From a virus (taxonomy: Duplodnaviria; Caudoviricetes): a DNA stretch of 64,000 bases. The notes beneath the pieces were generated by a model. The model searched no databases. It was given only the letters and a program-made list of their open reading frames with translations, and was not told the DNA's origin. The stretch spans positions 64,001 to 128,000 of IMG/VR virus record IMGVR_UViG_3300032280_000442. The stretch is one strand, 5' to 3'. Positions 8 to 62,801 of the stretch are shown piece by piece (positions within the stretch are counted from its first letter, which is position 1; every line of letters starts with the position of its first letter). Both the position numbers and the translations under genes were made by a program.

Positions 8-478
8 TTATATTTCTTCTCCGAAGATATCATCCGTCCAATTCTGAGGAACAAGAATGATTATATATCCTTGTCTAACTTCAATTGATGATTCCGGTAC
101 TATTCCTTCAAGTTGTTCCATTATCTCAGGTTTATCCTTGAAAACAACTCTCAACTTACCATCGGGAGCGGTGTCAACAACCTTATGGTTAAACCCGTCC
201 ATAACTTCCTTGAATCTGTCAAGTCCAACTTTTTCAAACTCTTCCTGTTCATCATCAGAATCAATATCTAAGTCTCCACCTAAAAATCTTTCAGGGACAT
301 TACTCTCCCCACCACTTTTTAGATATTCAATTTCTTCATCAGTCATACCCTCAAGACCAACCTCGTTATATAAATCTAAAATAATATCGTAGTAGTCCAT
401 ATCGAACTGTTCATTCATAATTCTCATTACAATATTTCTTAAATCAGATTCTGTTAATTTTATAATTTTCTTTTTCAT
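8..478 (-). CDS. hypothetical acidic protein with MKKKIIKLTESDL leader
   Basis: ORF track; leader ...LTESDLRNIVMRIMNEQ; TATTTAT motif at ~493-499. Confidence 0.85.
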   Translation of the reverse strand: MKKKIIKLTESDLRNIVMRIMNEQFDMDYYDIILDLYNEVGLEGMTDEEIEYLKSGGESNVPERFLGGDLDIDSDDEQEEFEKVGLDRFKEVMDGFNHKVVDTAPDGKLRVVFKDKPEIMEQLEGIVPESSIEVRQGYIIILVPQNWTDDIFGEEI

Positions 479-512
479 TTTAATTGTTTAATATAAATAT
501 GTGGTTATTCTG

Positions 513-833
513 TTACTGACATTGTTTATCGTAAAAATTCCTAAGATAATATCCAAAATTATGTACCATAAAATTATATAAATCATCTTTAGTTTTATTA
601 TCGACATCTTCACTAGTACTTTGATAAAAATCATCAATAAGGTCTTGAACCATCATATCACAAATATCACTAATGAAATTACCTACACTATCGTATTCAC
701 AAGCATTATTATTTTCTAAAATTGAAAATTCCAAATGGTTTTTAATTACATTATAATCATATCTTCTACGAAATGCAATTGGTATATTCTCCATCAATAA
801 ATCTTCCTGTCTCTCAGTAATTATTATTTTCAT
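513..833 (-). CDS. hypothetical protein with MKIIITE leader
   Basis: ORF in tightly packed operon. Confidence 0.85.
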   Translation of the reverse strand: MKIIITERQEDLLMENIPIAFRRRYDYNVIKNHLEFSILENNNACEYDSVGNFISDICDMMVQDLIDDFYQSTSEDVDNKTKDDLYNFMVHNFGYYLRNFYDKQCQ

Positions 834-840
834 TTAGACG

Positions 841-1161
841 TTATAAATAAATTTTAGTTATATAAATTTTCGCATTAGGAATCCATTGCTCAATACTATA
901 TTCAATCATTGGTAAAATTATTTCAAAATCTTCTCTATCTGTATTTAAATAAAGATTAACATTAACACTAATACCATCAGTTATTTTTATTTCATCAACA
1001 ACAATCTTTTCAACGGAACCAACCTCATTAATTTCATCCATTTCACCCAAACCCCACTCTTCATCAGCCTCTTGACGTAAGTTATTTAACTCATCATCAA
1101 GAATTTCTTGTACTAAAGTTTTTATTTGTCCAACTTTACTTTCTGTAATTATTATTTTCAT
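841..1161 (-). CDS. hypothetical protein with MKIIITE leader
   Basis: ORF; ATGA overlap with upstream gene. Confidence 0.85.
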   Translation of the reverse strand: MKIIITESKVGQIKTLVQEILDDELNNLRQEADEEWGLGEMDEINEVGSVEKIVVDEIKITDGISVNVNLYLNTDREDFEIILPMIEYSIEQWIPNAKIYITKIYL

Positions 1162-1523
1162 TCTTCAACCAATTTATTAATTATTTCACTTAAACTAATT
1201 CCCAACATATCAATATTAAGCATCGACAAGAAATCATAATAGTCAATTTCATAACCGGTACTTGTATCCACAATAAACCAAATTTGTTTTTCTTGTTTCT
1301 GAACCAAATAGTTATGTCCGTGAATATTTGAGAATAAGTACATCGGACCATAGTTATTTTGATAATGATTAAAAACATCTTTTCTATCACCAAATACATT
1401 ATGTTTTTCTGAACCGGTTAAATTCTCCCAACTTGTAATCATCTCAACACGATGGGTCAAATCATACCCAACATATTTGTTGATTAAGTTTTTAAATTTA
1501 TTTTCGGAAATTATTATTTTCAT
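1158..1523 (-). CDS. hypothetical protein with MKIIISENK leader
   Basis: ORF in operon. Confidence 0.85.
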   Translation of the reverse strand: MKIIISENKFKNLINKYVGYDLTHRVEMITSWENLTGSEKHNVFGDRKDVFNHYQNNYGPMYLFSNIHGHNYLVQKQEKQIWFIVDTSTGYEIDYYDFLSMLNIDMLGISLSEIINKLVEE

Positions 1524-1524
1524 A

Positions 1525-1948: not shown

Positions 1949-2017
1949 ATAAATATCCCCCAACTCCGAAATAAAAGGGGGCGGGGGGATTTGAAAACGA
2001 CCGGAGGGAGTTCGGGT
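1949..2017. repeat. dispersed GC-rich intergenic repeat A, copy 1
   Basis: ataaatatcccccaactccgaaataaaagggggcggggggatttgaaaacgaccggagggagttcgggt, near-identical to 5760-5828 and partly to 5361-5435. Confidence 0.9.
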
Positions 2018-4225: not shown

Positions 4226-5356
4226 TTATTTTATTTTTTTACTAATAGTCAGGATTCTATCTGTTGGTGAATAAACTGGTGGTTCAGGACTTTCCCAATA
4301 TCTACGACCCTGTATTATTTTATAATTACGGTATATTGGTCCATTTGATATTAAGATATAATCTGACTTATACGACAATTTAGGTGGTCTATTCCTATGT
4401 GAAAATGGAATATAATATTTACCATCTAAAGTATAGATTCCATTATTTTTAGCATTTACCGGTTGAAAAATTATTTTTTTCCCTTCATTCTCAACCACAA
4501 TTATTTCAGAATAATCGGTTTTTGTTGACGGACAAAAATTTTGAACAACTCTTGAATTAGGTAAGAATTTTTGAATATACGGTTCATAATTACTTTTAGA
4601 CATAAAAGTTGGTTTATAACTAATATTTTTAAGTAAAGTATTTAAAAATTCACCTTTAAATAACATTTCTCTTTTATCGTACACCCATTGAACAAAATCG
4701 TTATGTTCAAAAGTTTTCATTTGTTTAATATACGATTTAATAATTAAACTTATTGGGTCGTTTTCAAATATAACATAATTAAGTTTTGACCAACTAACAC
4801 CATTTTCATTAATAGAATTTGGTAGTGGATAAATATTTAAAAATCCTTCGGTTTTATCACAATATTTTGAATCATAAACACCATAATTATCACCATAGAT
4901 TTCTTTTAATGATTTTTCAATAACATTACGAAGGTCTTTACAGTAATTGTTATCACAATAACCTTTGTTAGACCTATAAACTTTTGAACGTTCATAAAAT
5001 AATCGTTCAGTTTCTTTCTCAGATAACTTACCAATATGTCGTTCAAACTTTTCATCAAAATTAATATTATATTTTCTTCTAATATCTGATAAATTCATAT
5101 AAAAATTTGAATTACCTGATTTTTGAACCAAATCTGCATCAAATATATATTCCTTCCCTGTTGTAATATCTGTGAATATAAACATTTCAGTTTCCGGATT
5201 TTTTTCAAATCGTCCCGTTGACTTAAATTGGACCATATAAATTCCAAACTGAGGTAATAAATGAGGTTCACTAAACCCATTAAAATCAATACTCTGAGTT
5301 TGTTCCTCAATCTCCTTTAATATTCTATACTGTTCTTCTGTTATAATAATTTTCAT
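4226..5356 (-). CDS. hypothetical 376-aa protein with MKIIITEEQY leader
   Basis: long ORF; TATTTAT at 5361-5367. Confidence 0.9.
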   Translation of the reverse strand: MKIIITEEQYRILKEIEEQTQSIDFNGFSEPHLLPQFGIYMVQFKSTGRFEKNPETEMFIFTDITTGKEYIFDADLVQKSGNSNFYMNLSDIRRKYNINFDEKFERHIGKLSEKETERLFYERSKVYRSNKGYCDNNYCKDLRNVIEKSLKEIYGDNYGVYDSKYCDKTEGFLNIYPLPNSINENGVSWSKLNYVIFENDPISLIIKSYIKQMKTFEHNDFVQWVYDKREMLFKGEFLNTLLKNISYKPTFMSKSNYEPYIQKFLPNSRVVQNFCPSTKTDYSEIIVVENEGKKIIFQPVNAKNNGIYTLDGKYYIPFSHRNRPPKLSYKSDYILISNGPIYRNYKIIQGRRYWESPEPPVYSPTDRILTISKKIK

Positions 5357-5360
5357 ATAT

Positions 5361-5435
5361 ATAAATATACACCAACATCAAAAAAAGGGGGCGGGGGGAT
5401 TTGAGAACGACCGAAGGGAGTCCGGACGGGGAAAG
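5361..5435. repeat. dispersed repeat A, copy 2 (partial)
   Basis: aaaagggggcggggggatttgagaacgaccgaagggagtccgg. Confidence 0.85.
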
Positions 5436-5437: not shown

Positions 5438-5755
5438 TTAATTTAAGTCTCTTACAAACAAATTCATATATGGTGAATTAGGTTCACCAAATTTATTGGC
5501 AACATATTCTTTACAGATATAAATCAAAGCTTCTTCATACATCCCAAACATACTTTTAGCCGTTTTAAAATCACTAATGTCAAATCTTATTGCTTCACTT
5601 TCCGTATTATATTCAAAAGCAATACGACCATCATCATTCATATATTCATACAGAACGTGGGGTGACATCATAGTAACCGGTCGTCGGGTGCGTTTCTTAT
5701 AACCCTTATAGGTCATATCAAAATATTTAAAGATGAGTTCTTTCTTTCTGTTCAT
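5438..5755 (-). CDS. hypothetical protein (LIFKYFD...MFG paralog family)
   Basis: ORF bracketed by repeat A copies. Confidence 0.8.
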   Translation of the reverse strand: MNRKKELIFKYFDMTYKGYKKRTRRPVTMMSPHVLYEYMNDDGRIAFEYNTESEAIRFDISDFKTAKSMFGMYEEALIYICKEYVANKFGEPNSPYMNLFVRDLN

Positions 5756-5759
5756 ACAA

Positions 5760-5828
5760 ATAAATATCCCCCAACTCCGAAATAAAAGGGGGAGGGGGGA
5801 TTGAGGACCGACCGGAGGGAGTTCGGGT
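5760..5828. repeat. dispersed repeat A, copy 3
   Basis: near-identical to 1949-2017. Confidence 0.9.
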
Positions 5829-6843: not shown

Positions 6844-7143
6844 TTATAATGTTTCGATATACCACCGAATGTCCGGTCTTTGTTTTTTAAGTAACCTAAT
6901 CGTCTTCTCACATTCTTTCCTGTTGTCAAATACCTCAGGAAATTCACCATCACCCATTCTCCTTCTAAATTCCTTAGTATTTGGTACGGCAGAGAATCCA
7001 CCGTCACCCGTATAAATAAACATACCCTTTCCTCTTAAATGGTCAGCATCACCATAAATAACATACCCCGATTCAGATTCCATCAATACTCTCCTAATCA
7101 AATTAGTTAAATCCGATTCCGTTAATCTTATAACTTTTTTCAT
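6844..7143 (-). CDS. hypothetical protein with MKKVIRLTESDL leader
   Basis: start at 7143; TATTTAT upstream. Confidence 0.85.
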   Translation of the reverse strand: MKKVIRLTESDLTNLIRRVLMESESGYVIYGDADHLRGKGMFIYTGDGGFSAVPNTKEFRRRMGDGEFPEVFDNRKECEKTIRLLKKQRPDIRWYIETL

Positions 7144-8707: not shown

Positions 8708-9391
8708 AATTGTTCATAACTTTTTATAAATATAGTTATCAACAATCCACTTGTACACACTGTCAGGGGGAAATGTTAATAACTTTTTCTGTTAAAATTC
8801 TTGATTTTGACAAAATGTCAGTCACGTTCGTCGATGGGGATAATCCCTTTACCACTATTTCCCCCCACTTATGATACAGGATTTACCACTTTTTACCACC
8901 ATTTATATCTCCCAGCATAGTGAGAAGTCAATTTTTCCCCTCTGTAGGTACTCTCAGGACCAATTATTTTGGTATATACGTTTCCCAGTAAAAAATGTAA
9001 GTAATGGTATAGTAGGCGTGGGAACCGTTAGGTGTTAGGAAGATTACTTCAACGACCACTTTAGTGGGGTTTAATTGACCCCTAATGAACGAACTCAATC
9101 ATCTATATATGGGACACCATAGAGACACAAAACACCATTAAAAGTTATGTTTCGTATCAGTGTAGTCAGTTTAAAACTCACAAGAATGATACAAAAGATA
9201 ACTTATTAAAACATCCCGTTAAAGTTCAAAATATGGGAATGTTCATTGCAAATGAAAATACGACTACAAATGAACACCATACCGGATAACTAATCGTGTC
9301 TCTCATAAGTCCCACTCTGTACGGGGGGACAGAATGTCCCCAATATAAATGGGGGGAAATATTCGTATTTATCCGTATATATACGAATGAG

Positions 9392-9463
9392 AAAATAGTA
9401 AAGGATGAAACTATGAGTGAATTCCGGAACGGAGTGTAGGACTATGAACGAATAGTTTTATCG
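9392..9463. repeat. dispersed imperfect-palindrome repeat B, copy 1
   Basis: aaaatagt.aaggatgaaactatgagtgaattccgga...taggactatgaacgaat.gttt, also at 12124-12195. Confidence 0.9.
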
Positions 9464-9464
9464 T

Positions 9465-10049
9465 TTAGTATTTTTGTGTAATATATTGTGATATAAACTC
9501 TTTGATTACATCCCATTTTTCATCAGGTAATTCACTATACACAAAATAATCCCCGTGTAAATCTTCATCAACCAAACTAATTAGTTTATCTAAATATTTT
9601 TGTTTTGTTTCATAATATTCGGGATGTAAGTGTTTGATAAATTTGTTAATGGATTTATCTATTAGGTACGTTCTCCGTCTTATGTCATTTAAGTTCATTA
9701 AGAACGATGACTCTTCCCTTAATATTCTTCTTATGGATTCTTGTAAGTTCATATTTGTAAGTTCATCATACTTTTTAATTATTCTTTCCCCGAATATTTC
9801 TTGTATAAACTTATATAAACCTTCTTCCGGTATAGGTGAATCTTCCACCCACCCATCGGTTAATTGCACAAGTATTTCCTCAGTAATTGAACTCACAACA
9901 ATAACCATAAATTTATTCGATGACATATTGGCATAATGTTTGAAGTTCCTTGATTGATTATTTAATTTTTGGTTAAAAATACTCTCAAGTTCATCAATAC
10001 TATATCTTCTTAAGATATATCTCTTTATGTTATTCTTTTGTAAGTTCAT
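9465..10049 (-). CDS. hypothetical two-module protein with N-terminal MNLQ and internal MNLQESIRRILREE leader
   Basis: ORF translation. Confidence 0.85.
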   Translation of the reverse strand: MNLQKNNIKRYILRRYSIDELESIFNQKLNNQSRNFKHYANMSSNKFMVIVVSSITEEILVQLTDGWVEDSPIPEEGLYKFIQEIFGERIIKKYDELTNMNLQESIRRILREESSFLMNLNDIRRRTYLIDKSINKFIKHLHPEYYETKQKYLDKLISLVDEDLHGDYFVYSELPDEKWDVIKEFISQYITQKY

Positions 10050-11316: not shown

Positions 11317-11751
11317 ATGAAAATAGTAATCACCGAAAATAAAATGTATAACCTTCTTAATAAATCCCTCGAACATTTGTTTGACGGGTTTAATGATGTC
11401 GATTATACTTGGGCCGACTTTAACTGTGGTTGGGGTGTATGTTGTGATATATATGCCGTTGGTTTTACACTTCCCGGTAGTGAACACGATGACTACCTAT
11501 TTAAACTAATTGATAGTGAGAACTATGATAATAACGGTGACTATGGTGAAGAACTTACCGGCGAGTTACCTGAGATATGTATGGAACATCCCGATATTAC
11601 CAACCCCCAATTTGATACCATTATCTTTTATGAACTATTTGTGGAAGAACTTGAGAATTACTTAGGACCAATACGTAATTGGGGTACTGAGTTGTTAGGT
11701 CTGTTAAACACTAAGTTCGGTATGAATGCTAAGAAAATAATATTCATATGA
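11317..11751 (+). CDS. hypothetical protein with MKIVITENK leader (start 11317)
   Basis: GATATTTATA at 11302-11311 just upstream. Confidence 0.85.
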   Translation: MKIVITENKMYNLLNKSLEHLFDGFNDVDYTWADFNCGWGVCCDIYAVGFTLPGSEHDDYLFKLIDSENYDNNGDYGEELTGELPEICMEHPDITNPQFDTIIFYELFVEELENYLGPIRNWGTELLGLLNTKFGMNAKKIIFI

Positions 11752-12071
11752 GAATAATAATTACAGAGAATAAAAGAAACAAAGCCATAACCAAATGGTT
11801 AGATGAGAACTACGGTGACTTAGAAAAGTATTCTGCTCCGGGTAGTTTTAGATACATCGTCTACAGAGATAATAATGGTGGGAATGTTTTTAATTTTAAT
11901 CGTAACACCGGTATAGTTACAATAGTTAATGAAATTTTGTATCAAGATTTAAAACATATGTTTGGTCTTAACGGATATGAATTAAATGATATCTTTATTC
12001 CTTGGATTATGGAAAGATATAATGTACACGCTGAGAAAGTTCAATACGCCGAGTTTACCCACCTGTTTTAA
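11748..12071 (+). CDS. hypothetical protein with MRIIITENK leader
   Basis: ATGA overlap. Confidence 0.85.
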   Translation: MRIIITENKRNKAITKWLDENYGDLEKYSAPGSFRYIVYRDNNGGNVFNFNRNTGIVTIVNEILYQDLKHMFGLNGYELNDIFIPWIMERYNVHAEKVQYAEFTHLF

Positions 12072-12123: not shown

Positions 12124-12195
12124 AAAATAGTGAAGGATGAAACTATGAGTGAATTCCGGAGTGGAACGTAGGACTATGAACGAATGGTTTAATCG
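12124..12195. repeat. dispersed repeat B, copy 2
   Basis: near-identical to 9392-9463. Confidence 0.9.
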
Positions 12196-12668
12196 TTGAC
12201 TATTTTACTTAACATTAAATGAAAAATCTTATCCACTATACTATGACTTAAATTTTCATATTTTATGTTAAAACTACCAAGATAAAAGTCATCATAATCA
12301 TAATCATAACCACTTATTTCTTTAGTATATCTTTCTACGACAATATATTCAGGTCTATAATATTCTATTAGTTGTTTTTCCTCGTAAGTTTCATCATACA
12401 CTATTGAACCTCCCCACGAAAATCCGGGACCACCAACCTCAACATCGTCATACTCTTCACAAAGTTTTGTTACAATATCTTTAATGAATTGAATCTTTTC
12501 TTCTTTGGTGAATTCATAATCCCCCATCATTTGTTTGAGTTTGTTATATCCCCCAAAATAACGAATGGTATCATATATACCCATATCGTTAATTAAGTTA
12601 GCAACTTTGTTCTCTTTGATAACCCCCATCATTTGGTGGATTCTATGTATGTTCTCTTGTAAGTTCAT
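12189..12668 (-). CDS. hypothetical protein with MNLQENIHRI leader; paralog of the C-terminal half of 13960..14697
   Basis: MGIYDTIRYFGG/LGVSDAIKYFGN and KYENL/KYESL similarity. Confidence 0.85.
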   Translation of the reverse strand: MNLQENIHRIHQMMGVIKENKVANLINDMGIYDTIRYFGGYNKLKQMMGDYEFTKEEKIQFIKDIVTKLCEEYDDVEVGGPGFSWGGSIVYDETYEEKQLIEYYRPEYIVVERYTKEISGYDYDYDDFYLGSFNIKYENLSHSIVDKIFHLMLSKIVND

Positions 12669-13132
12669 ATTGAATAAAATATATCATCCGGTCTGTTACT
12701 TTTAGTTGTTTTAATTCCGTTATTTAATAAAATTATTTTAACAAAACTCCCGCAATTCACAGCTCTTTTATTTTTAATATTACAAACAATTTCATTTGGA
12801 ACTTCAACTACCTTAGGTAATTTAACTTCATCGTAAAGACCTTGTTCTTTCGCATCCAATTTTGATTTTGACATATTAAATAATTCTTCAGTATCTTCAA
12901 ATCTATATTTAATTGGTGGTAAAGGTTTTACTCCGTCTTTAGTATATCTATGACCACTCATATCTTTCATAGTCCCATCTGTAAGAACAAATCCTATATG
13001 GTCATAATCCCAACCTTTTGGACAATATGGTGATTTCATAACAAATAAAGTATCAGATAAATCCTTATCTTTACTTTCTTTAATAATCCCCATCATTGAT
13101 TGGATTCTATGTATGTTCTCTTGTAAGTTCAT
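12665..13132 (-). CDS. putative permuted papain-like (NlpC/P60) hydrolase with MNLQ leader
   Basis: His (DHIGF) precedes Cys (NCGSFV). Confidence 0.55.
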   Translation of the reverse strand: MNLQENIHRIQSMMGIIKESKDKDLSDTLFVMKSPYCPKGWDYDHIGFVLTDGTMKDMSGHRYTKDGVKPLPPIKYRFEDTEELFNMSKSKLDAKEQGLYDEVKLPKVVEVPNEIVCNIKNKRAVNCGSFVKIILLNNGIKTTKSNRPDDIFYSI

Positions 13133-13133: not shown

Positions 13134-13541
13134 TTAATTAATATGTTTGAATACTTTTCTAATGTGTTTCGGTAATGAATTTATTGGTATTACCTTTGCT
13201 TTGATTGTTTCTAATCCTTGTCTTGCAGCTTTCTGAGCTCTGTGGTGTCCGTCTATAATTGTTATGAATTTACCATCATCGTTAACAAAGATTAGTATTG
13301 GGTATTGTAAATCAGCACTTTCTATCTTTCTAACCTCATCTTCATCCCCATCCCACGATAGTAAATGTGGCTTTAATTCTTCTACTGAGATATTTTTTAC
13401 CGGAATGTTTTCTGTAGCATTTAATAAATCCATAAGGGTGATTTTATCCCCCTCATTATTTTGCCAAGATGTGTCGTGTAATCCTTCATTGATTACCCCC
13501 ATCATCTGTTTAATTCTATGTATGTTTTCTTGTAAGTTCAT
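13134..13541 (-). CDS. ParB/Srx N-terminal-like domain protein with MNLQ leader
   Basis: ADLQYPILI...IIDGHHRAQKA. Confidence 0.8.
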   Translation of the reverse strand: MNLQENIHRIKQMMGVINEGLHDTSWQNNEGDKITLMDLLNATENIPVKNISVEELKPHLLSWDGDEDEVRKIESADLQYPILIFVNDDGKFITIIDGHHRAQKAARQGLETIKAKVIPINSLPKHIRKVFKHIN

Positions 13542-13542: not shown

Positions 13543-13956
13543 TTAATAACTTTCTCCTGTCCCTTTATAAATTAGTTTAATACAATCCGATGGTATAGTG
13601 TTGAAAGTTACAATATGTTTTTGGTAGTCACCATCATCAAAATGTCTATCTTTATACCACTCAACCTCCGCACATTCCGTATCTATAATCCAAATGTCAT
13701 CATCATAGGTTGAATCAAACATATCTTCTTTTGTTACAGAATCTGTTGCGAATATGGCTTCTTTACAAGGAGTATCACCGCCAACAAATTGTCTATAACA
13801 ATCACCAACTGATGTTTGTAATCCCATTTGTTTTATGTCTTTCCTCCACATAGGATTTGATTTGTGAGCAACATATTTTCCCGGTTCGTATTTCATACCC
13901 GATGGAGAATATATCTCTTCATTCACAATTCGTATTATGGTGTTAATTAATTTCAT
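13543..13956 (-). CDS. putative ADP-ribosyltransferase/Tpt1-like fold protein with leader
   Basis: AHKS...IKQMGL, AIFAT, IWIID, IPSDCI pattern. Confidence 0.45.
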   Translation of the reverse strand: MKLINTIIRIVNEEIYSPSGMKYEPGKYVAHKSNPMWRKDIKQMGLQTSVGDCYRQFVGGDTPCKEAIFATDSVTKEDMFDSTYDDDIWIIDTECAEVEWYKDRHFDDGDYQKHIVTFNTIPSDCIKLIYKGTGESY

Positions 13957-13959
13957 ATC

Positions 13960-16069: not shown

Positions 16070-16070
16070 A

Positions 16071-16472
16071 TTACCTATTATATGGTCTAAACCTTGCTGG
16101 GTTTGCTTTTATTGCCGACTTTGGAAATCTTAATCCAACTCCCTGTTGTCTTGCATTTTTTAATGTTCTTGCGTATTCTGTTAATTCTTCACTATCAATA
16201 TTATCAATAGATTTTACTAATTTATGACATTTATCAGATACACCACCCTTTTCGTGGTCGGTTATGGATATTTTTACTTTATCATAATTTATTTCAATGT
16301 CCGGATGATGGTTTTGTGTTTCAGCAATTTTCGCAATTTTATTAACAAAATCAATAGCATCATTAAAATCTTTGAATTTGAAAGTTCTTTCTAATTTTTT
16401 ATTAGAATTAACCCAATTTTTTGATTCAAACATCATTTCTTTAATCCTTTGTATATCTTCTTGTAAGTTCAT
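16071..16472 (-). CDS. pterin-4-alpha-carbinolamine dehydratase (PhhB/PCD-like) with MNLQ leader and basic C-terminal module
   Basis: LERTFKFKDF..A..FVN.IA..AE.QNHHPDI...THEKGGVS pattern. Confidence 0.9.
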   Translation of the reverse strand: MNLQEDIQRIKEMMFESKNWVNSNKKLERTFKFKDFNDAIDFVNKIAKIAETQNHHPDIEINYDKVKISITDHEKGGVSDKCHKLVKSIDNIDSEELTEYARTLKNARQQGVGLRFPKSAIKANPARFRPYNR

Positions 16473-46469: not shown

Positions 46470-46530
46470 ATCAATAAATATCAACGAAGATACAAAATTT
46501 ATTTACTTATTACCATTATTATTGATATTT

Positions 46531-48242: not shown

Positions 48243-48965
48243 TTATCTTCTAAACCAACTTCTTCTTTCTTCTTTTGACGCAGATTTAGACACGCCACAT
48301 TTAGTATGCGAAAAATCAGGGTCTTGAGTATCACAAGATGGCACGTTTGGTAATTTTTTTTGTTTTTCTAAATATTTTACATAATCAGCTTCAGTTTTAC
48401 CAGGGTTATTCTTCAACCAAGCATCCACATATTTTTTATGTATTTCTTCAGCCTTTTTTAATTCAGGTGCTCTTTTTTCCTTCCAAGCTTTGGCAATAGA
48501 ATCTTTTTTCTGAATGGTTTTAAGTCTTAATTCTTCAGCAGCCTTCTTTTTAAGTTCAAGTTTTTCTTTATTTAACTTAATTTGTTCTTCTCTACTTAAT
48601 TTAACCGGTGTTGTGGTTGTAGAAGTTGTGGTTCCGGAAGTTGTGGTTTGTTCATCCAAATAATTTTCTAAATTTAATATTACAAATGTTGTATAAGTAT
48701 TATCCTCATTTTGAAATATTTTTTCTTTATCTATTTTACTTGTATTGGTATTATATATTTTTGTTTTAATTTTTTTTGAAAATGCCCTCATTGCATTTTT
48801 TACCGCTAATTCTTTAGAAAAAGACATATTAGGACTTTTACCTTCACCAAACGCTTTTTTACTATTTACATCATCATTACAAACACTCCATTCTTTTCTG
48901 ATATTTTCCGGAGTGGTTTGTTCAACCAAATAATTATACTGAGATTCTTTAATTACTATTTTCAT
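48243..48965 (-). CDS. two-module protein with MKIVIKESQY leader and duplicated NYL(V/D)EQTT junction
   Basis: 23-nt direct repeat at 48643-48665 and 48913-48935. Confidence 0.85.
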   Translation of the reverse strand: MKIVIKESQYNYLVEQTTPENIRKEWSVCNDDVNSKKAFGEGKSPNMSFSKELAVKNAMRAFSKKIKTKIYNTNTSKIDKEKIFQNEDNTYTTFVILNLENYLDEQTTTSGTTTSTTTTPVKLSREEQIKLNKEKLELKKKAAEELRLKTIQKKDSIAKAWKEKRAPELKKAEEIHKKYVDAWLKNNPGKTEADYVKYLEKQKKLPNVPSCDTQDPDFSHTKCGVSKSASKEERRSWFRR

Positions 48966-52055: not shown

Positions 52056-53450
52056 TTATTCTTCCATATGGTAGAAACCGTCACCTGAATTGTATTTTTC
52101 TAACGATTCAGGAACTTTAACATTCGGACATCTACTTACATTTAAAAATGTAAGATTTGGTAGTGTTGTAACACACTCAGGAATTGTTCTCAATTCTTTG
52201 TTGCCAGGGAAAGCTAAGAACACTAAGTTTTTTAATTCACAGATTGAATCCGGAACTTTACTAATCATATTTTCAAACAAAATAGCCGTTAACGATGTGA
52301 ATCGACTGATTGTGTCCGGAACATCAATATTAACAGTTTCATTTGACGTGTTAATAATATTTAATCTTTTGATTGTTGTTGGTAGTGAGTTGAACAATTC
52401 TTCAAAACCATATAATGCTACGAACTTACCTGTTGCGGAGTCCGGATATTTAATCTCAACATTATCCGAATTTGGTTTAACAAATCCTGCAGCAAATTCA
52501 GGTTTGAATATTTCTTTAAACTCAGACCATTTTCCATTTAAATACTCAACAACCGGGATGTTACCTCCGTGTTGGTTAGCAAATTTAAATTGGTTTGATG
52601 GGAAGTGGAATTGATATCTTTCAGATGGCAATCCTGTAACCTCACCTACTTTACCTTTATCATCATTAGCGATGAAGATATATAACGGACCTTGATTTCT
52701 ATAAGTGTTTGAATAACTTGAGTTTTCTGCCGCAGTACACCAATTGGTTTCACCTCTATCAAGACCACCATTATAACCCCCAAAATAAGATGCCGCCTTA
52801 GAACCTAAAGCCCCTTTGTCAGCAATTTTGATTAAGGTATATTCAGAACCAACTTTTAAGATTTCAGCACCAGGAATATTATAGTTTGTGTTAACCGCAG
52901 CTCCTGCCTCTTTCTTAACTTTTTTACCACGATACATATTTAAATCAACAGTTTCACCATCGCCCACCTTAACTTTTAAGTGAGATAAGTCATTCAATGA
53001 TTTAACATTATTAATGTCTTTTTTAGAGGCATCCTCTAAACTACCTTTAAATCTATCGTATTTCACCAATAACTCAGTGAATTGAGATAAATCTTCTAAG
53101 AAAAGTCTTCTGTATTCGTTTGCTTTTGCTTTATATTCGTCAGAACCAACTTCAATTGGTTCGTTAGTTACTTCTCTAGTAAGGTTTGGTTTAACAAATA
53201 GATTCAATAACCATTGAGTATATTTACCAACTTTAACCTTGTCACTTGTCATATCTTCAACAGACGCAGCTTCTTTGTCATAGTTCTCAGGAACTCTTGT
53301 TGTAGGGTCAGCAAAAACTATTTGCTTAACAACCTCAAATGGTAAAATACCTTTTTTTCTCTCACCACTAGGTAAAACATATTTCTTGTATAATATTTGA
53401 AAACGAGCGTCTTCAGTAATTAAGTTCGATAATACTTTTGTAATCTTCAT
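52056..53450 (-). CDS. leucine-rich-repeat protein with LITE leader and WCTA domain
   Basis: VPDTISRFTSL, VPDSICELKNL, IPECVTTLPNL repeats. Confidence 0.85.
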   Translation of the reverse strand: MKITKVLSNLITEDARFQILYKKYVLPSGERKKGILPFEVVKQIVFADPTTRVPENYDKEAASVEDMTSDKVKVGKYTQWLLNLFVKPNLTREVTNEPIEVGSDEYKAKANEYRRLFLEDLSQFTELLVKYDRFKGSLEDASKKDINNVKSLNDLSHLKVKVGDGETVDLNMYRGKKVKKEAGAAVNTNYNIPGAEILKVGSEYTLIKIADKGALGSKAASYFGGYNGGLDRGETNWCTAAENSSYSNTYRNQGPLYIFIANDDKGKVGEVTGLPSERYQFHFPSNQFKFANQHGGNIPVVEYLNGKWSEFKEIFKPEFAAGFVKPNSDNVEIKYPDSATGKFVALYGFEELFNSLPTTIKRLNIINTSNETVNIDVPDTISRFTSLTAILFENMISKVPDSICELKNLVFLAFPGNKELRTIPECVTTLPNLTFLNVSRCPNVKVPESLEKYNSGDGFYHMEE

Positions 53451-55704: not shown

Positions 55705-56616
55705 TTATCTTTTAAATTTCACAAATAGTTTTATATATAAATCACCTCTACCGTGATATCCTTTACTTTTAACTCTTAATGGTTTTGACGTATCAAATTC
55801 ACCCGGTAACTTAATTGAAATCTCACCTAATGGATGAGGAACTTTAACACTATCCTGTTTTAACGAATTTAAATCAAAATAAGCATTATATATTAAATCA
55901 TCCATAGATTTTTCAAAATTATTTTCAGGAACAATTTTAACTTTAACCACTAAATTACCATACATCCCATCTTTATAATCACCTTTACCTTGAACACGTA
56001 AGAATTGTCCTTCATCAATTCCGTTAGGTAATTTAATTGATATTGTTTCAACACTAGATGTTGTAGTACTACCGTGACAGGTTCCACAAGTTGTTTTATA
56101 AGAAAATCCTCTACCACCACAAGAACCACAACTTTGTCTAATTATTTGAGTAAACAATCCGGTTCCTATTTGTTGAGTAATCACACCTTGTCCTCCACAA
56201 GTTGAACAGTTTATTCTTTCCCCTCCAGAACCATTACATCCTCCACAATTATGATTTCTAGTATATGTGATATTTTTTTCACCACCTTTATAAGATTCTA
56301 CAGCACCAACAACAACTTCAATAATTTTATCAGGAACTGCTCGTTTTCTTTGAGTGTGCATTTGATTAAACATATCTTCAAAAGGATTAAATCCTCCACC
56401 ACCCATATTAGCAAATGGGTTTCTTTTTTGATTATCGTATTGAGTTCGTTTATTTTGGTCACCTATCGTATCATACGCCTCTGAAATTTTTTTAAACTTA
56501 TTTTCATCACCACCCTTGTCCGGATGATGTTCAACCGCTAACTTTCTATAAGCTTTTTTTATTTCGTCTTGTGAGGCATTTTCACTAACACCTAATATTT
56601 GATAAAAATCTTCCAT
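55705..56616 (-). CDS. dnaJ: DnaJ chaperone
   Basis: J domain HHPDK, short G/F region, four CxxCxGxG-type motifs, C-terminal domain. Confidence 0.95.
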   Translation of the reverse strand: MEDFYQILGVSENASQDEIKKAYRKLAVEHHPDKGGDENKFKKISEAYDTIGDQNKRTQYDNQKRNPFANMGGGGFNPFEDMFNQMHTQRKRAVPDKIIEVVVGAVESYKGGEKNITYTRNHNCGGCNGSGGERINCSTCGGQGVITQQIGTGLFTQIIRQSCGSCGGRGFSYKTTCGTCHGSTTTSSVETISIKLPNGIDEGQFLRVQGKGDYKDGMYGNLVVKVKIVPENNFEKSMDDLIYNAYFDLNSLKQDSVKVPHPLGEISIKLPGEFDTSKPLRVKSKGYHGRGDLYIKLFVKFKR

Positions 56617-59015: not shown

Positions 59016-60311
59016 TTATTGAGTTTTTTGATTGTACCCCATTAAAGATTTTATTCTTTCAAACTCTTCGTTAATTTGTTTTGTTTTTTTATCTTCAATA
59101 GACTCTAATTTAATGTTTACACCTTTACCTTTTTCAGTCCCACTTTTTTCGTTAAAAACAGGTTGAGGTACTCTATTATAAGATTGGTCTTTTAATTTTT
59201 TAAGTGTATTTTTCTTTCTTAATTTATTAAATCTATCATTTGTTTTAGACTCTAAAGCATTCCCACCCGGTGCGTTACCCGTTTTTGAATCTCCTTTATA
59301 TAATTTTTCCATCCAATCTTCATTAAATTCAATAGCATCAGGTGTTGGTAAATTTAGACCTGCAATTTCATAATTAAAATCTTCTAAATCATCTGTCATT
59401 TGAAAAGCCTTTTTATCCATTTTCTCTAATTCACCATTACCTACCGGAAATATTTTTGGATTCATTTCATATTCACCTTTAGAACCATCTTTAAGGTAAT
59501 CTTTCATTTTTTTGGTAACATCCTTAATATAATCATTATTCTCTTTACCAGAACCGTTGTGAGCTTTTTTATAAACCTCTAAACCTCTTGGAGAACCACC
59601 CATACCTTTAATGTTATTTTTTTCCGCAGGGTCTTTAACAATTTTATTTTTTTGGTCTTTAACAATTTTCTCAATCAAACGAATCATTTCACTTTCAGTC
59701 AATCTATAAGACTCTTTAACAGAATATTTTTTACCATCAACCTCAAAAGAATCTTTACCTTCTTTTTTTGCCTTAGCTAAAGCTCCCGAAAATGCGTTAC
59801 CTTCTTGAGTTTCTTGTTCTTCCATACCGTGTTTTACAGATTTTTTCACACTTTTTTCTTTACGTAAAAGTTTAAAGTCTTCAGAATCAATCTTATTGTT
59901 TTTGTTTCTATCCAATCTTTTTTGACGGCCTTTTAACGCCTCATTAATGTTAACACCTTGACACATTTCTTTAGTAACAGGGTCTTCCTTACCAAAATTT
60001 TCTATATGGTATTTACAAGTTTTTTCTTTGTCTTCGTCAGTATCCTCAACATCAACTTCAATGTCGTCAATATATTCATTCTCACCAACGTAGTCGAATT
60101 CACCGTTAATATCCCCTTCATCGTGAATATCTTCTTCCATTTGACCACCACTATAACCACATTCATTACATTCACCTTCATACATAGTTCCACCACATTC
60201 GCATACATCACCTTTAATTTTAGAAACAAGACTATCTGCCTTTTCTTCTAAAGTTTCTTTTAGAATTTTAGATACTAAATTATCTAAATAAGTTGTATTT
60301 AATTTTTTCAT
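59016..60311 (-). CDS. modular protein with many [ILV]xE sites; candidate head core/internal protein
   Basis: ILKE leader, internal RLTESEMIRLIEKIV, C-terminal INEEFERIKSLMGY; EF-hand-like DRNKNNKIDSEDF. Confidence 0.75.
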   Translation of the reverse strand: MKKLNTTYLDNLVSKILKETLEEKADSLVSKIKGDVCECGGTMYEGECNECGYSGGQMEEDIHDEGDINGEFDYVGENEYIDDIEVDVEDTDEDKEKTCKYHIENFGKEDPVTKEMCQGVNINEALKGRQKRLDRNKNNKIDSEDFKLLRKEKSVKKSVKHGMEEQETQEGNAFSGALAKAKKEGKDSFEVDGKKYSVKESYRLTESEMIRLIEKIVKDQKNKIVKDPAEKNNIKGMGGSPRGLEVYKKAHNGSGKENNDYIKDVTKKMKDYLKDGSKGEYEMNPKIFPVGNGELEKMDKKAFQMTDDLEDFNYEIAGLNLPTPDAIEFNEDWMEKLYKGDSKTGNAPGGNALESKTNDRFNKLRKKNTLKKLKDQSYNRVPQPVFNEKSGTEKGKGVNIKLESIEDKKTKQINEEFERIKSLMGYNQKTQ

Positions 60312-60350
60312 TTTTAGTTTTTATTATAAATATATTAGTTTTTAACTTTA

Positions 60351-61217
60351 TTACTTTAAAAAGGTATTTTCATACTCATAAGCAATAATTGTTTTAATTA
60401 CATTCTCACTTATATTATGTCTCTGACTAATATTTTGAATAGCTTTCTTAACTTTTTCATTCTCAAATATTTTTAGAGCCTTTATGTCACCTTGATTACA
60501 ATATGGGAATTTTTGACATTTCTTTTTAACTTGAACAAATTTACCACCCGGTATTTGTGTTTTCTTTCTACCACCCCAATCTTTTTTATTGGTTGATTTA
60601 GCCCAAGCAGATGTTGTTTCGTATGAACCGGAAGACCCTGAACCCGTAGCTTCGGTAGCTTCAACTTTTTTAGTTTCACCACAAACACATTTAGATTTAA
60701 CTCTATCACAAGAATCGCAATATTCTTCATTCATTTCTTTTTTTGTTGCTGAGAACAATGGTCCTGAGTACCCACCCGCAGAACCTGAACCTGTAGATTC
60801 TTTATTTTCTTCTTTACCAACTCGTTTGTATCGACTTTTTTTAATAAACGGGTCCGACTGACTTACATTTGGTGTACCAAATTCATTATCTTTTTCTTTA
60901 AATTTTTTAAAATCAGAATCTTTTTGTAAATCTTTCTTAAATTGTGATTTAGCACTCTTATCTTCACCCATAATAGGTAATGATGAGGTTAATTTACCAA
61001 TTGGTTTATTAATCTTAGGTTTACCCACTAATTTATCAGCAATACCTTTTTTCATTGGTCGTTTAATTATTTTTAATTTTTTATTCTCAGGAATTTCATT
61101 TTTAAATTCATTTGCAGTAATTACCGCATCAATACCTCCTTGCGACACAACATTAGATTTTCCAATTTCTTCAGAATAAGCCTTTTTCAAATCAGCCCCA
61201 ATACTTTCTTTTAACAT
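60351..61217 (-). CDS. modular basic protein with two E|xTGSGS repeats
   Basis: NKE|STGSGSAGGY and ATE|ATGSGSSGSY. Confidence 0.8.
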   Translation of the reverse strand: MLKESIGADLKKAYSEEIGKSNVVSQGGIDAVITANEFKNEIPENKKLKIIKRPMKKGIADKLVGKPKINKPIGKLTSSLPIMGEDKSAKSQFKKDLQKDSDFKKFKEKDNEFGTPNVSQSDPFIKKSRYKRVGKEENKESTGSGSAGGYSGPLFSATKKEMNEEYCDSCDRVKSKCVCGETKKVEATEATGSGSSGSYETTSAWAKSTNKKDWGGRKKTQIPGGKFVQVKKKCQKFPYCNQGDIKALKIFENEKVKKAIQNISQRHNISENVIKTIIAYEYENTFLK

Positions 61218-61221
61218 AATC

Positions 61222-61467
61222 TTAAGCTTGTTTAAGTCTTGGTTCCCAATAACTTCTATTGGTCCACATAAATTGATAAAATTCTCGGAACATTCTTAAT
61301 GTAATGTCTTTAACATCACCTTCAAGTTTACCTCGTTTAATTTCTTTTGCTATTGTATCAATTAATTTATTTTCATACTGTTGTAAAGTAGAACTCCCCA
61401 GAAAATCTTTAATTTCTTTACGGATTAATGTTTCAATTTCTTTTTTATCTGTTGCTGATAATGCCAT
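61222..61467 (-). CDS. hypothetical protein (start MALSAT at 61467)
   Basis: TAATG coupling. Confidence 0.75.
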   Translation of the reverse strand: MALSATDKKEIETLIRKEIKDFLGSSTLQQYENKLIDTIAKEIKRGKLEGDVKDITLRMFREFYQFMWTNRSYWEPRLKQA

Positions 61468-61913
61468 TATTTTGTTAAAATAAGATATGTTGATGCGATA
61501 ATACCCGCATAAGTACCTACTTTCCATAAGAAAGTTTTAGTTCTCTGACCTTTAAGTTCTTTATGTAAACTGTTAGTTAATTCTTCTGAAATTTTTAATT
61601 GTTCATCTTTTTTACCTAACATAAAATTATTATTCTTATCTTTTTCTTCAAGAAGAACTATGTGAGAATCTTTTTCTTTTTCTCTCTCTTCAGTTTTGAT
61701 TAGTTTTTCCTGAGTCAATTTTAATTCAACTTCACAACCATCACCTTTAAGAATATCTTTAATTGCCAATTTAGCGACCGGAACTTTTAACCTAATCTTA
61801 GTGGTATCACTTTGAGTTGTTGGTATATTAGTTTTTTGATTTGTCGTATCTGTTTGTGAAAAACTGCTCAAGCTCGTTAGCAGTAAGAGTGTCAACACTA
61901 TTAACTTTTTCAT
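61467..61913 (-). CDS. signal peptide plus coiled coil plus C-terminal TM (spanin-like?)
   Basis: MKKLIVLTLLLLTSLSSFSQ; WKVGTYAGIIASTYLIL. Confidence 0.65.
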   Translation of the reverse strand: MKKLIVLTLLLLTSLSSFSQTDTTNQKTNIPTTQSDTTKIRLKVPVAKLAIKDILKGDGCEVELKLTQEKLIKTEEREKEKDSHIVLLEEKDKNNNFMLGKKDEQLKISEELTNSLHKELKGQRTKTFLWKVGTYAGIIASTYLILTK

Positions 61914-62187
61914 TTGTTTGTTTTTTAATTATTGTTATGTTATTGTCTATGTGATGAATTTCTTTTGTAATTTTAACCACATTACCTTTTACAGAATCAA
62001 TCTTAACGTCAATCCCTTCATTAATCGCTTTAGCAGAATCAATTTCTGTTTGAATTGATTCGATTTTCTTTTTATAACTATCAACATCAGTTTTAATTCC
62101 ATTGGTTGTAAAGATGTTCCATCCCGCCAATACAATAACGATTATCAATAATATATTCTGTTTATTATTACTTACAATATCTTTCAT
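61828..62187 (-). CDS. N-terminal TM plus coiled coil (i-spanin-like?)
   Basis: ILLIIVIVLAGW then heptads; overlaps next gene by 86 nt. Confidence 0.65.
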   Translation of the reverse strand: MKDIVSNNKQNILLIIVIVLAGWNIFTTNGIKTDVDSYKKKIESIQTEIDSAKAINEGIDVKIDSVKGNVVKITKEIHHIDNNITIIKKQTNEKVNSVDTLTANELEQFFTNRYDKSKN

Positions 62188-62801
62188 TATTCTTCTGTTT
62201 TAACTGTTTTTTTTCTTGAGGCTAAAACTCCAGCCCATTTTGATTTAAATTTTTCATAATAATTTTTTAATTTACCAATTAAATTTAAAAATTCATCATC
62301 AACTTTTAACATTTCACCATTAATATAAACACCATTTTCTTCACCTATTGAAAAGAAAAATTCAATATCAAATTCTATTAAAGTACCTGACCATTCAACA
62401 TTATTTGTGTATACGTTTAGTTTATTAAAATCCGCCATATCCGAAACATCGGCAACAAATTCATCCATAGTTTCTTGGAATGCAATTTTTTCATCTGTTG
62501 TTAATTCTAAATCTGTTTGGTTTTTACCGTGTAAAACTAATAATCCACCTGAAATTCGATAAACTTGTTTTTTATCGTCCTCAGATTCTTCTTCGTCATC
62601 TTCAGCAGTATCATAATCAATTTTATCTTTAACTGATTTTGTTACATTAATTTTTGAAGTGACATTGTTATCAGTTAAGTCAACACCTTGTTCTGTCAAT
62701 AATCCGTATTGTCTACGGATATCCTCATTAATAGTCTCATTATTTAATAATTTTCTTGAGGCTTCTAATAATTGTTTAATTTCATCGTGTGAATTGTTCA
62801 T
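62187..62801 (-). CDS. hypothetical protein with LLTEQ-type site
   Basis: ORF. Confidence 0.8.
   Translation of the reverse strand: MNNSHDEIKQLLEASRKLLNNETINEDIRRQYGLLTEQGVDLTDNNVTSKINVTKSVKDKIDYDTAEDDEEESEDDKKQVYRISGGLLVLHGKNQTDLELTTDEKIAFQETMDEFVADVSDMADFNKLNVYTNNVEWSGTLIEFDIEFFFSIGEENGVYINGEMLKVDDEFLNLIGKLKNYYEKFKSKWAGVLASRKKTVKTEE

Follow-up and report, generated by a model that had tools for sequence, protein, structure and literature searches.

The window, the 64,000-nt stretch of DNA analysed here, is part of the complete 308,574-bp genome of an uncultured T4-type jumbo phage, the host phylum of which is Bacteroidota. About 50 mostly unrelated small proteins per genome start with one of six N-terminal tags, here called leaders, of 7 to about 26 residues. 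Strong leaders were found on about 30 genes in the window (28 by strict HMM and two, at 2864 and 9752, by six-frame reading only) and on 47 genes in the genome. Weak variants were seen at 21118, 22702, 13543, 13960, 38545, 40718, 52056, 59016 and 62187; the figure of about 40 leader proteins given in the first-pass annotation holds if these are counted and exceeds the number of strong leaders. The classes are A (MK[IVL]xI[TSK]E), B (MKKxIxLTES[DE]L..[IV]..[IV]xxE), C (MNLQE[ND]IxRI..MM), D (MKELIK[KR]xLREE) and E (..EEEKxRIL.xH....[IV]SEQ, for example at 42126-42479), and a sixth class, F, also exists. The first-pass annotation had described A to D, all of which are real, and every coordinate that it named carries the N-terminus it gave. 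The leader genes and related features of the window are as follows, with a slash marking the leader end or an equivalent junction.

8-478, minus: class B gene, MKKKIIKLTESDLRNIVMRIMNE/Q (leader HMM)
513-833, 841-1161, 1158-1523 and 1525-1944, minus: four tandem class A genes (HMM E 2e-7 to 2e-5) with N-termini MKIIITE[RS].., MKIIISENK and MKIRITESQYYNLVE/Q
1935-2017, minus: 83-nt cassette, with further copies at 5345-5427 and 5746-5828
2577-2864, minus: class A1 gene, MKIIITESQYDLISE/Q, from an internal ATG of ORF 2577-2999, the start codon lying 4 nt after TATATTTAT
4226-5356, minus: class A1 gene, 376 aa, MKIIITEEQYRILKE/I (leader HMM)
6844-7143, minus: class B gene starting at 7143, MKKVIRLTESDLTNLIRRVLME/S (leader HMM)
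9465-10049, minus: two-leader ORF with N-terminus MNLQKNNIKRY.. and an internal C/D hybrid, MNLQESIRRILREE, from 9752
11317-11751 and 11748-12071, plus: two class A genes (leader HMM)
12189-12668, 12665-13132 and 13134-13541, minus: three tandem class C genes, MNLQENIHRI..MMG[VI]I[KN]E/x
13543-14697, minus: two genes with another weak leader type, MKLINTIIRIVNEE and MKLIGTIKSILVEE (by eye only)
14697-15470, minus: class C gene, 257 aa (leader HMM), no domain in a Pfam search
15470-16069, minus: class B gene, ..RVINE/S (leader HMM), with internal EGEFTE/ and EEELTE/ junctions preceding small basic Cys modules
16071-16472, minus: class C leader (leader HMM), pterin-4a-carbinolamine dehydratase (PCD) domain (Pfam PF01329, E=8e-24), SEELTE/ and a 38-aa basic tail, in that order
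17372-17701, 17698-18027, 18030-18329 and 18329-18721, minus: four tandem class A genes (leader HMM)
18721-19323, 19323-19670 and 19667-20182, minus: three tandem class D genes, MKELIKKxLREE (leader HMM)
20184-20513, minus: class A gene starting at 20513, MKIVIKEDK, with GATATTTAT 4 nt upstream
32355-32873, minus: class A gene, MKLIITESKY (leader HMM)
37160-38083, minus: class D gene, 307 aa (leader HMM)
42126-42479, minus: class E leader, MAKRFIITEEEKGDILSKYGLVSE/Q (leader HMM), then a LysM domain (Pfam PF01476, E=2e-9)
45108-46469, minus: class B gene starting at 46469, 453 aa, with an acidic coiled-coil body (leader HMM); its G001 orthologue likewise has a class B leader
48243-48965, minus: class A1 gene, MKIVIKESQYNYLVE/Q (leader HMM)
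59016-60311, minus: protein of 431 aa; weak leader at the N-terminus, ..KILKE/T; class B-like motif, RLTESEMIRLIEKIVKDQ, internally from about aa 203; C/F-like motif, ERIKSLMGY, at the C-terminus

The 47 genomic leader genes fall into 42 body clusters that are unrelated to one another; class A includes one four-member and two two-member families of whole-length paralogues. Of the domains named in the first-pass annotation, PCD and LysM pass the Pfam cut-offs, DHH (40718-42124) and LRR (52056-53450) fall below them, and the flavodoxin-like, ParB-like and ferritin-like domains were not recovered by Pfam. Since nearly all bodies are without a recognisable domain, the description of the cargo as enzymes and effectors is mostly unsupported.

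Leader sequence, selection and distribution

Leader HMMs searched over the complete genome, translated in six frames, gave 25, 6, 5 and 4 matches at E<0.01 and none in a reversed-sequence control. N-terminal matches numbered 19, 6, 5 and 4 compared with 0.005-0.055 expected per class from 200 residue shuffles, and, per residue, the motifs were enriched 24-276-fold in the first 31 residues relative to other positions. The idea that the leaders are swappable is borne out only by hybrids such as the A/E leader in G001 and by a few cases in which homologous bodies follow different leaders. The leaders end in hydrophobic-x-Glu (..VINE/S, ..VIKE/Q, ..IIKE/S, ..ISE/Q and IITE/S), as originally reported, and conservation stops there: among 120 class B homologues, divergence begins directly after the leader Glu. 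A second site is present at residue 15 in 20 of 42 class A leaders. The hydrophobic-x-Glu motif carries little information, and many stretches of 30 residues would contain one by chance. At conserved Ser, Leu, Arg and Thr positions, 3-5 different codons occur, including AGT versus TCN, and this synonymous variation at conserved residues indicates that selection acts on the leader peptide. AF2 predictions placed residues 1-6 of the class A2 family protein 18329-18721 in a coil (residues 1-4 below pLDDT 50), with E7 at the start of the first helix, and gave pLDDT below 50 for residues 1-30 of the class B protein 8-478, which has its predicted fold at 82-152. The leaders are thus predicted to be unpacked from the bodies in both families.

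In metagenomes, class B leaders head no fewer than 5,044 clusters at 90% identity and no fewer than 7,020 at 50% identity, and one 296-kb relative has 14 copies. For one class B protein, the 29 Atlas clusters closest to it are viral (97-100% among those listed). An S77 protease was present in each of the eight IMG/VR genomes that carry leaders and have a completeness of at least 90%, in two of which it is just 42-44% identical to that of the window phage; this co-occurrence is confounded by phylogeny. Most cargo bodies lack a homologue in a relative with a 76%-identical major capsid protein (MCP), in line with T-even phages, in which the loci for internal proteins turn over fast. In Flavobacterium phage immuto, the closest cultured relative (41% MCP identity), the protease is present and these leaders are absent.

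Head genes and promoters

The gene layout TerL-portal-bS21(reverse)-protease-MCP places the phage in the bS21 jumbo-phage clade. The MCP belongs to the T4 gp23 family (phrog_138, 2e-67; also tblastn). A Glu-specific prohead protease had been expected from the leader ends, and the genome encodes a gp21-type enzyme (Pfam S77, 1.6e-24) that shares 34% identity with T4 gp21 and aligns with it at the ELNHP and SSRG motifs. The suggested comparison with the MCP cleavage site was likewise fruitful: ..ASFLINE/ATGEG.. aligns with the homologous T4 maturation site ..GSFLTE/AEIGG.., and LINE/A is unchanged in all 80 of 80 relatives, with variation at the residues downstream. A review (PMC9026906) gives the T4 capsid propeptide as 65 residues and places gp21 cleavage after L/I-X-E. 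In a scaffold-like 528-aa protein, LVKE/S is invariant (28/28), and the defining residues of KE/S, E/S and L-I-E/S sites vary little or not at all. The phage protease, like T4 gp21, has an invariant I-L-x-E near its own N-terminus.

Leader genes and virion genes have in common a single-element promoter, ATATTTAT (the L motif), without a -35 element. We assigned the head of the transcription unit for 44 leader genes: 43 have the L motif and one, 37160-38083, has a host-type match, the only such leader gene; for three further genes the walk to the unit head ended at a strand switch. The ratio of L to host-type heads was 65:3 in virion modules, 11:12 in the replication/sigma region and 200:62 over all genes, in agreement with the view that leader genes have the promoter type of virion genes rather than the host type. 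The phage also encodes a sigma-70-family factor, located behind host-type promoters. L heads about three quarters of assignable units, including an operon that contains ribonucleotide reductase, and therefore may be a general (middle plus late) phage promoter.

Proposed capsid targeting and other explanations

Collectively, these results suggest that the leaders probably form a T4-type capsid-targeting and propeptide system, hugely expanded; the overall interpretation of the first-pass annotation, which had proposed portable leaders loading cargo into the head for co-injection, is partly supported, and each of its predictions accessible to computation was borne out. Late in infection, the ATATTTAT promoter would drive head genes and about 50 small accessory genes, the tag on each accessory protein would bind the scaffolding core while the prohead assembles, and the gp21-type serine protease would then cut after the Glu of hydrophobic-x-Glu. 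The cut sites would be L-I-N-E/A in the MCP, several invariant scaffold sites, the leader ends and internal polyprotein-like junctions in the cargo. Cleavage would free the cargo inside the head, and entry into the host with the DNA would follow. We infer core binding, cleavage, virion presence, ejection and late promoter timing. Several points count against packaging: no characterised T4-type head comes near about 50 cargo species per genome, PCD would be a surprising enzyme to find as cargo, the N-termini of the class A paralogue families may be conserved simply by descent, and L may be a general rather than a late promoter. The low information of hydrophobic-x-Glu, the dissimilarity of classes B-F to the T4 targeting sequence, the phylogenetic confounding of the S77 co-occurrence and the lack of leaders in immuto point the same way.

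The leaders could instead be docking motifs for a shared partner other than the prohead, such as a phage chaperone/unfoldase set or a host target, and would then serve to attract folding assistance, timed degradation or a shared binding site. The phage encodes a DnaK-like protein (genome 26871-28838), a J-domain protein (window 55705-56616) and a ClpA/B/C-like ATPase (genome 285504-287549), each recognised by eye from its N-terminal sequence. Starts such as MKKIIRL and MKIIIT, basic then hydrophobic, resemble Hsp70-binding peptides, and the predicted flexibility of the leaders and their detachment from the folds would suit docking, as would the internal copies in about 18% of class B proteins, needless for a pure N-terminal signal. 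We nevertheless consider docking unlikely, as it leaves unexplained why conservation ends exactly at hydrophobic-x-Glu, why the ends match the MCP and scaffold sites, why the promoter is common to virion genes and why the leaders resemble T4 head-protein N-termini.

Leaders without any shared biochemical function, as the conserved 5' ends of recombining mobile cassettes combined with ordinary paralogue expansion, appear still less probable. The 83-nt unit, which recurs three times, has a G/C stem-loop, a (G/T)ATATTTAT promoter-like element and a leader start in that order, and class C gene starts are nearly identical in DNA over about 57-76 nt. The hybrid leaders, the homologous bodies with different leaders and the three whole-length paralogue families of class A are also consistent with such an origin. 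The unit resembles a PeSL (promoter plus stem-loop) cassette, a type documented to mediate modular shuffling in T4-type phages (PMC2839356), in which variable ORFans of plastic genome regions are bordered by conserved stem-loop/promoter units; PeSL-like units are a plausible route for the exchange of leader-bearing genes. They differ in that the promoter here is phage-specific rather than of the early sigma-70 type and conservation of the unit continues past the start codon in the form of a selected peptide. However, leader residues have been retained through synonymous and two-step codon changes, and many leader genes lie inside operons without the cassette. Class B has been conserved in no fewer than 7,020 families, and in phages with a protease just 42% identical, something that recombination alone cannot maintain. 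Recombination thus probably explains the spread of the leaders and not their retention. It is very improbable that the tag serves to be recognised by a modifying enzyme: radical-SAM modification is close to refuted, with no such domain at E<=1 in the complete genome and 14 of 14 control genomes positive, and no other candidate maturase was seen adjoining the leader clusters.

For the capsid-targeting reading, known systems offer partial parallels. Encapsulin cargo-loading peptides are likewise short, portable and terminal and bring unrelated cargo into an HK97-fold shell; they are usually C-terminal, uncleaved and unrelated in sequence, making this an analogy only. Prohead-protease processing of propeptide-bearing ejection and inner-body proteins is reported for the giant phages phiKZ, 201phi2-1 and SPN3US (PMC5694885, PMC7411985, PMC10052503). 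These too are jumbo phages, and their heads enclose dozens of proteins, many of which a Glu-specific prohead protease cleaves; they represent another phage lineage, and the likeness is drawn at the level of head-protein processing. T4 itself differs in having essentially one leader class rather than six and about 4 rather than about 50 tagged genes per genome. The leaders here reach about 26 residues with a predicted helix, include hybrid and internal copies and polyprotein-like junctions, show no sequence similarity to the T4 capsid-targeting sequence in classes B-F, and belong to a phage of Bacteroidota. The two phages nonetheless belong to the same superfamily, and T4 has N-terminal tags of 6-19 residues ending in L/I-x-E, one of which is common to unrelated proteins (MKTYQEFIAE begins both IPII and IPIII); in T4 too, the cargo genes are non-essential and have a quick turnover. 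Other T4 head proteins start MELITE (Alt), MEGLIE (gp67), MLLIPE (gp68) and MAKINELLRE (gp24), and the class A start MKIIITE is similar to that of Alt, the tags being alike in kind and length.

Leader families, their spread and their conservation

The first-pass annotation proposed that portable N-terminal leaders on about 40 unrelated proteins in the window are capsid-targeting tags of the T4 type, removed after a Glu residue by a gp21-like prohead protease. All of the leader N-termini that it named were recovered at their positions. The leaders fall into class A (MK[IVL]xI[TSK]E), class B (MKKxIxLTES[DE]L..[IV]..[IV]xxE), class C (MNLQE[ND]IxRI..MM) and class D (MKELIK[KR]xLREE). An HMM scan of the genome in six frames (E<0.01) gave 25 class A, 6 class B, 5 class C and 4 class D matches and none in reversed sequences. 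At N-termini, the matches numbered 19, 6, 5 and 4, respectively, compared to 0.005-0.055 expected per class from residue-shuffled proteins. We added class E (..EEEKxRIL.xH....[IV]SEQ) and class F (E.I.N.KYL.GYK.G.VISEQ). Hybrid leaders were observed at window position 9752 (C/D) and in a relative (A/E), and leader length reached about 26 residues. Under strict criteria, there are 47 leader genes in the genome, of which 28 lie in the window; the proposed figure of about 40 is reached only if weak variants are included. The bodies that follow the leaders are mostly unrelated, as claimed (47 genes form 42 BLAST clusters), except that three class A groups consist of paralogues over their whole length. 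Among the domains assigned to them, PCD and LysM scored above the Pfam cut-offs, DHH and LRR stayed below them and the other named domains were not recovered. Comparison of ten leader proteins with PHROGs yielded no functional annotation. On a 453-aa leader protein, a match to a 'head maturation protease' family was discounted, since it covers an acidic coiled-coil stretch only.

A complete 296-kb relative (major capsid protein, MCP, 76% identical) contains 14 class B and 16 class A matches. In a metagenome protein search with a 41-column class B alignment, 8,000 candidates were scored, giving at least 5,044 clusters at 90% identity; at 50% identity there were at least 7,020 representatives (E<=0.001). 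A back-translated leader pattern matched at least 120 IMG/VR contig stretches, and the Atlas neighbours of one class B protein were 97-100% viral. Among the 120 class B homologues listed, there were no Pfam domains and the only informative source name was one 'Zn-ribbon' label. Class A and B leaders were both absent from the cultured Flavobacterium phage immuto. A class B search found none in Microcystis phage Mel-JY01, Salicola phage SCTP-2 or the huge phage LR756511, and the huge phage LR756508 gave weak leader matches only. Searching GenBank phages with the 26-aa class B leader (tblastn) or with a 3.5-kb stretch (blastn) returned zero matches.

The leaders had also been called swappable. 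A few homologous bodies do bear different leaders, and for most cargo bodies the 296-kb relative has no homologue, a comparison that agrees with fast turnover and some swapping. An 83-nt unit comprising a G/C stem-loop, a promoter element and a leader start occurs in three copies, stem-loops lie upstream of many copies of the single-element promoter ATATTTAT (the L element), and class C genes have 57-76 nt in common at their starts. PeSL cassettes, through which modules are shuffled in T4-type phages (PMC2839356), have a similar arrangement. Recombination has probably spread the leaders, and we take the 83-nt stem-loop/promoter unit to be the likely vehicle of exchange rather than the reason for peptide conservation. 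Codons at conserved leader positions vary (Ser TCA/TCT/TCG/TCC/AGT; Leu TTA/CTA/CTT; Arg AGA/CGA/CGT/CGC; Thr ACA/ACC/ACT/ACG), and leaders are present also on within-operon genes that have no upstream cassette. These two observations exclude a purely nucleotide-level explanation, whether a translation-initiation region or a recombination box; the constraint acts on the peptide and not on the DNA. A role in translation initiation, as a 'downstream box', was rejected because the peptide survives synonymous and AGT/TCN changes, also within operons.

AlphaFold2 models were made of a class A2 family (22 sequences, mean pLDDT 82) and of a class B protein (14 sequences). In the class A2 model, residues 1-6 are coil, residues 1-4 fall below pLDDT 50 and the first confident helix begins exactly at Glu7; Foldseek found no PDB structure matching this model (E<=0.001). 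In the class B model, pLDDT is under 50 for residues 1-30, where residues 10-22 form a low-confidence helix, and the fold comprises residues 82-152. In both models the leader is predicted to be an appendage outside the fold, as a removable tag would be.

A T4-type head module and candidate cleavage sites

The record is a single virus of 308,574 bp, has a G+C content of 31.5% and is flanked by direct terminal repeats; the window covers its bases 64,001-128,000, in which no tRNA genes or Rfam families were found. The head module lies outside the window, at genome 267-280 kb, in the order large terminase, two virion proteins, portal, 239-aa protein, reverse-strand bS21, 156-aa protein, prohead protease, 69-aa protein, 528-aa hyper-acidic scaffold-like protein and MCP. 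Chen et al. 2022 (PMC9723584) described such a gene arrangement for jumbo phages that infect freshwater Bacteroidota and encode bS21. Two of its genes, both in the stretch L013, and three chaperone-like genes called from their N-terminal sequences are:

Genome 269088-270674 (L013:7088-8674), minus strand: 528-aa scaffold-like protein with conserved helical ends (aa 1-45 and 400-528)
Genome 272571-273290 (L013:10571-11290), minus strand: 239-aa bS21 neighbour, the 'bS21_CN' hypothetical of Chen et al. 2022, with a ATATTTAT promoter
Window 55705-56616, minus strand: J-domain protein (..HPDKGG..)
Genome 26871-28838, minus strand: DnaK-like Hsp70 (..GVDLGTTNS..)
Genome 285504-287549, plus strand: ClpA/B/C-like ATPase

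The last three would together make up a full chaperone set. Between the conserved ends of the scaffold-like protein lies a spacer of ~240 residues, rich in Asp/Glu, that differs greatly in length and sequence among relatives. The 239-aa bS21 neighbour has 14 hydrophobic-x-Glu sites within its 239 residues and looks like a candidate prohead core or scaffold protein.

The MCP belongs to the T4 gp23 family (phrog_138, 2e-67) and matches thousands of T4-like phages by tblastn, the closest cultured MCP being that of Flavobacterium phage immuto (41% identity). The predicted gp21-type protease is present: a 241-aa protein matches Pfam Peptidase_S77 (PF03420, E=1.6e-24, above cut-off) and phrog_207 (2e-43), and shares 34% identity with T4 gp21 across 146 residues, in which the ELNHP and SSRG motifs line up. 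The S77 protease was found in 8/8 of the phylogenetically non-independent source genomes of the back-translated leader pattern that are at least 90% complete; the three genomes without it are 43-71% complete. In two source genomes (412 kb) the protease is just 42-44% identical to that of this phage, yet the leader MKKIIRLTES[DE]L is kept.

In T4, gp21 cleaves after L/I-X-E; the propeptides removed from virion proteins range from 7 residues in Alt to 65 in gp23 (PMC9026906). In gp23, the Glu of ..GSFLTE↓AEIGG is residue 65 (arrows mark proposed cut positions), and the MCP sequence ..ASFLINE↓ATGEG aligns with it, in line with the expectation of a capsid cut site comparable to that of T4. L-I-N-E-A is invariant in 80/80 related capsid genes and the next residues are variable, from which we infer cleavage of the MCP at LINE↓A. 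In the scaffold-like protein, LVKE↓S is invariant in 28/28 relatives, and the K-E↓S, E↓S and L-I-E↓S sites have defining residues that are invariant or nearly so. Residues 15-18 of the protease are an invariant I-L-x-E, parallel to the LIE site near the N-terminus of T4 gp21.

Leaders end in similar motifs, including RVINE↓S, RVIKE↓Q, GIIKE↓S, VISE↓Q and IITE↓S. The class B Glu is invariant in the 6 genome copies and present in 15/16 copies pooled from this genome and the relative phage genome G001. Among the 120 metagenome homologues, the first 22-23 residues are nearly constant and divergence begins immediately after the Glu. ITE is found in 42/42 class A leaders and a second hydrophobic-x-Glu ending at residue 15 in 20/42 (e.g. 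MKIIITESQYxxLxE). The hydrophobic-x-Glu motif at leader ends is in general of low information content. T4 head proteins start with MELITE (Alt), MEGLIE (gp67), MLLIPE (gp68), MAKINELLRE (gp24) and MKTYQEFIAE (IPII, IPIII), which places the 7-residue MKIIITE well inside the known range of tags. Class A, with MKIIITE, is the sole class that resembles a T4 propeptide (Alt MELITE); similarity to the T4 capsid-targeting sequence MKTYQEFIAE was not found, and classes B-F are unlike T4 N-termini.

Sites of the hydrophobic-x-Glu type also precede conserved modules inside cargo (SEELTE↓, EGEFTE↓, LLTE↓A and QLNE↓A), and ~18% of the best class B representatives have two or three leader copies per chain. 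The protease would split such a chain into separate proteins. The minus-strand region at window 15470-16472 encodes small basic Cys-rich C-terminal modules (..KCWAGYTQKGMKTMFGKKYPNCVK and ..YARTLKNARQQGVGLRFP..) after E-L-T-E junctions. In G001 (97421-98713, stretch L105) a single 430-aa frame combines these modules with a Zn-ribbon and another leader and looks like a polyprotein.

Promoter use of leader and virion genes

The most enriched upstream 8-mer of the genome is ATATTTAT, found upstream of 66 genes compared to 4 expected. Genome-wide there are 109 sites, which lack a conserved -35 element; most often they lie 4 nt (23 sites) or 13-17 nt from the ATG. Since it often ends 4 nt before the ATG, leaderless or near-leaderless mRNAs are implied; in a phage that encodes bS21, a ATATTTAT close to the ATG could be how late messages are favoured. 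Copies in the window and the nearest sigma factor gene are:

Window 1949-1957, 2869-2877, 5361-5369, 5760-5768, 20518-20526 and others, minus strand: promoter-like ATATTTAT elements
Genome 128513-129313 (L006:513-1313, a stretch outside the window, 513 nt past the window end), minus strand: sigma-70-family factor (Pfam regions 1.2, 2 and 4)

ATATTTAT precedes the protease, the portal, the scaffold/MCP operon, the large virion proteins and most leader genes, as well as genes whose N-termini, read by eye, suggest sheath-like, tube-like and baseplate-like proteins. Some non-virion genes are also headed by it. The host-type Bacteroidota motif TTG..TAnnTTTG lies upstream of few genes, including the operon with the sigma-70-family factor. 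A different sequence precedes the gp32-like SSB gene. Counting the promoters that head transcription units, the ratio of L to host-type was 43:1 for leader genes (three further units ended at a strand switch); it was 65:3 in virion modules, 11:12 in the replication/sigma region and 200:62 over all genes. Leader genes thus resemble virion genes in promoter use. The L element is putatively a 'late' promoter, judging from the genes that it heads, from a single-element architecture like that of T4 late promoters and from published data that place head-gene expression at a late stage. The sigma-70-family factor, whose two directly upstream same-strand genes have host-type TAnnTTTG promoter matches, is a candidate for reading the ATATTTAT promoters.

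A GIY-YIG-type homing endonuclease gene (MNCGIYKIVN..IYIGSS; window 46524-47127, plus strand) and a class B leader gene are arranged back to back, both with a separate ATATTTAT element; this promoter is likewise found at other GIY-YIG genes of the genome.

Readings of the leaders

Taken together, the sequence evidence makes it reasonably probable that the leaders are capsid-targeting/propeptide tags of the T4 type. The T4 capsid-targeting sequence/propeptide is the closest known system. This phage differs from it in having six leader classes, lengths up to about 26 residues, hybrids and internal copies, about 50 tagged genes per genome, thousands of metagenome families and a Bacteroidota jumbo-phage host range. 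No paper describing these leaders was found in the literature, and a full-text search on leader strings gave mineralogy papers only.

Alternatively, the leaders may dock another shared partner, such as the phage-encoded chaperones or Clp ATPase. A common docking peptide would leave unexplained both the boundary at the Glu and the link to the virion promoter. Recognition by a radical-SAM maturase was rejected, as PF04055 was not detected at E<=1 anywhere in the whole genome while controls were positive in 14/14 cases. Signal peptides were likewise rejected, since the leaders have no hydrophobic core and the true lipoprotein/signal sequences of the genome look different.

A more speculative extension of the T4-type tag reading, which we consider rather unlikely, is that the six classes form a non-redundant combinatorial address code. 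Thousands of cargo families would be sorted by place (for example, inner body versus free internal proteins), copy number or release order in jumbo-phage heads, and multi-leader polyproteins would be cut into co-delivered sets. Such a code would imply a phage-borne injected 'secretome' that, with >7,000 cargo families for one class, rivals bacterial effector systems in diversity.

If the leaders are T4-type tags, the head of a common freshwater Bacteroidota jumbo phage delivers dozens of fast-evolving proteins with its DNA. In T4, the few internal proteins are known to counter host defences and to help take over the host; the tags would therefore flag, from sequence data only, thousands of candidate first-minute proteins of this type in metagenomes. 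What jumbo phages inject would become directly testable, and the tags would be ready-made protein-packaging signals for engineering non-coli phages.

Two further features of leader genes were noted. A class A1 leader protein (genome 28873-29331, minus strand; 8873-9331 of the stretch L003) has an HExxH-like motif in its body (..FIEAHEVTHVLLSHDG..) that is conserved in G001; it has no Pfam match and may be a candidate small metalloprotease cargo. Two copies of an 83-nt non-coding element, 89% identical, lie at window 9392-9474 and 12124-12206. Neither has an Rfam match; each straddles the stop codon of a leader-bearing gene, reaching from the 3' end of the gene into the spacer just beyond it, and the element may be a structured RNA or a terminator.
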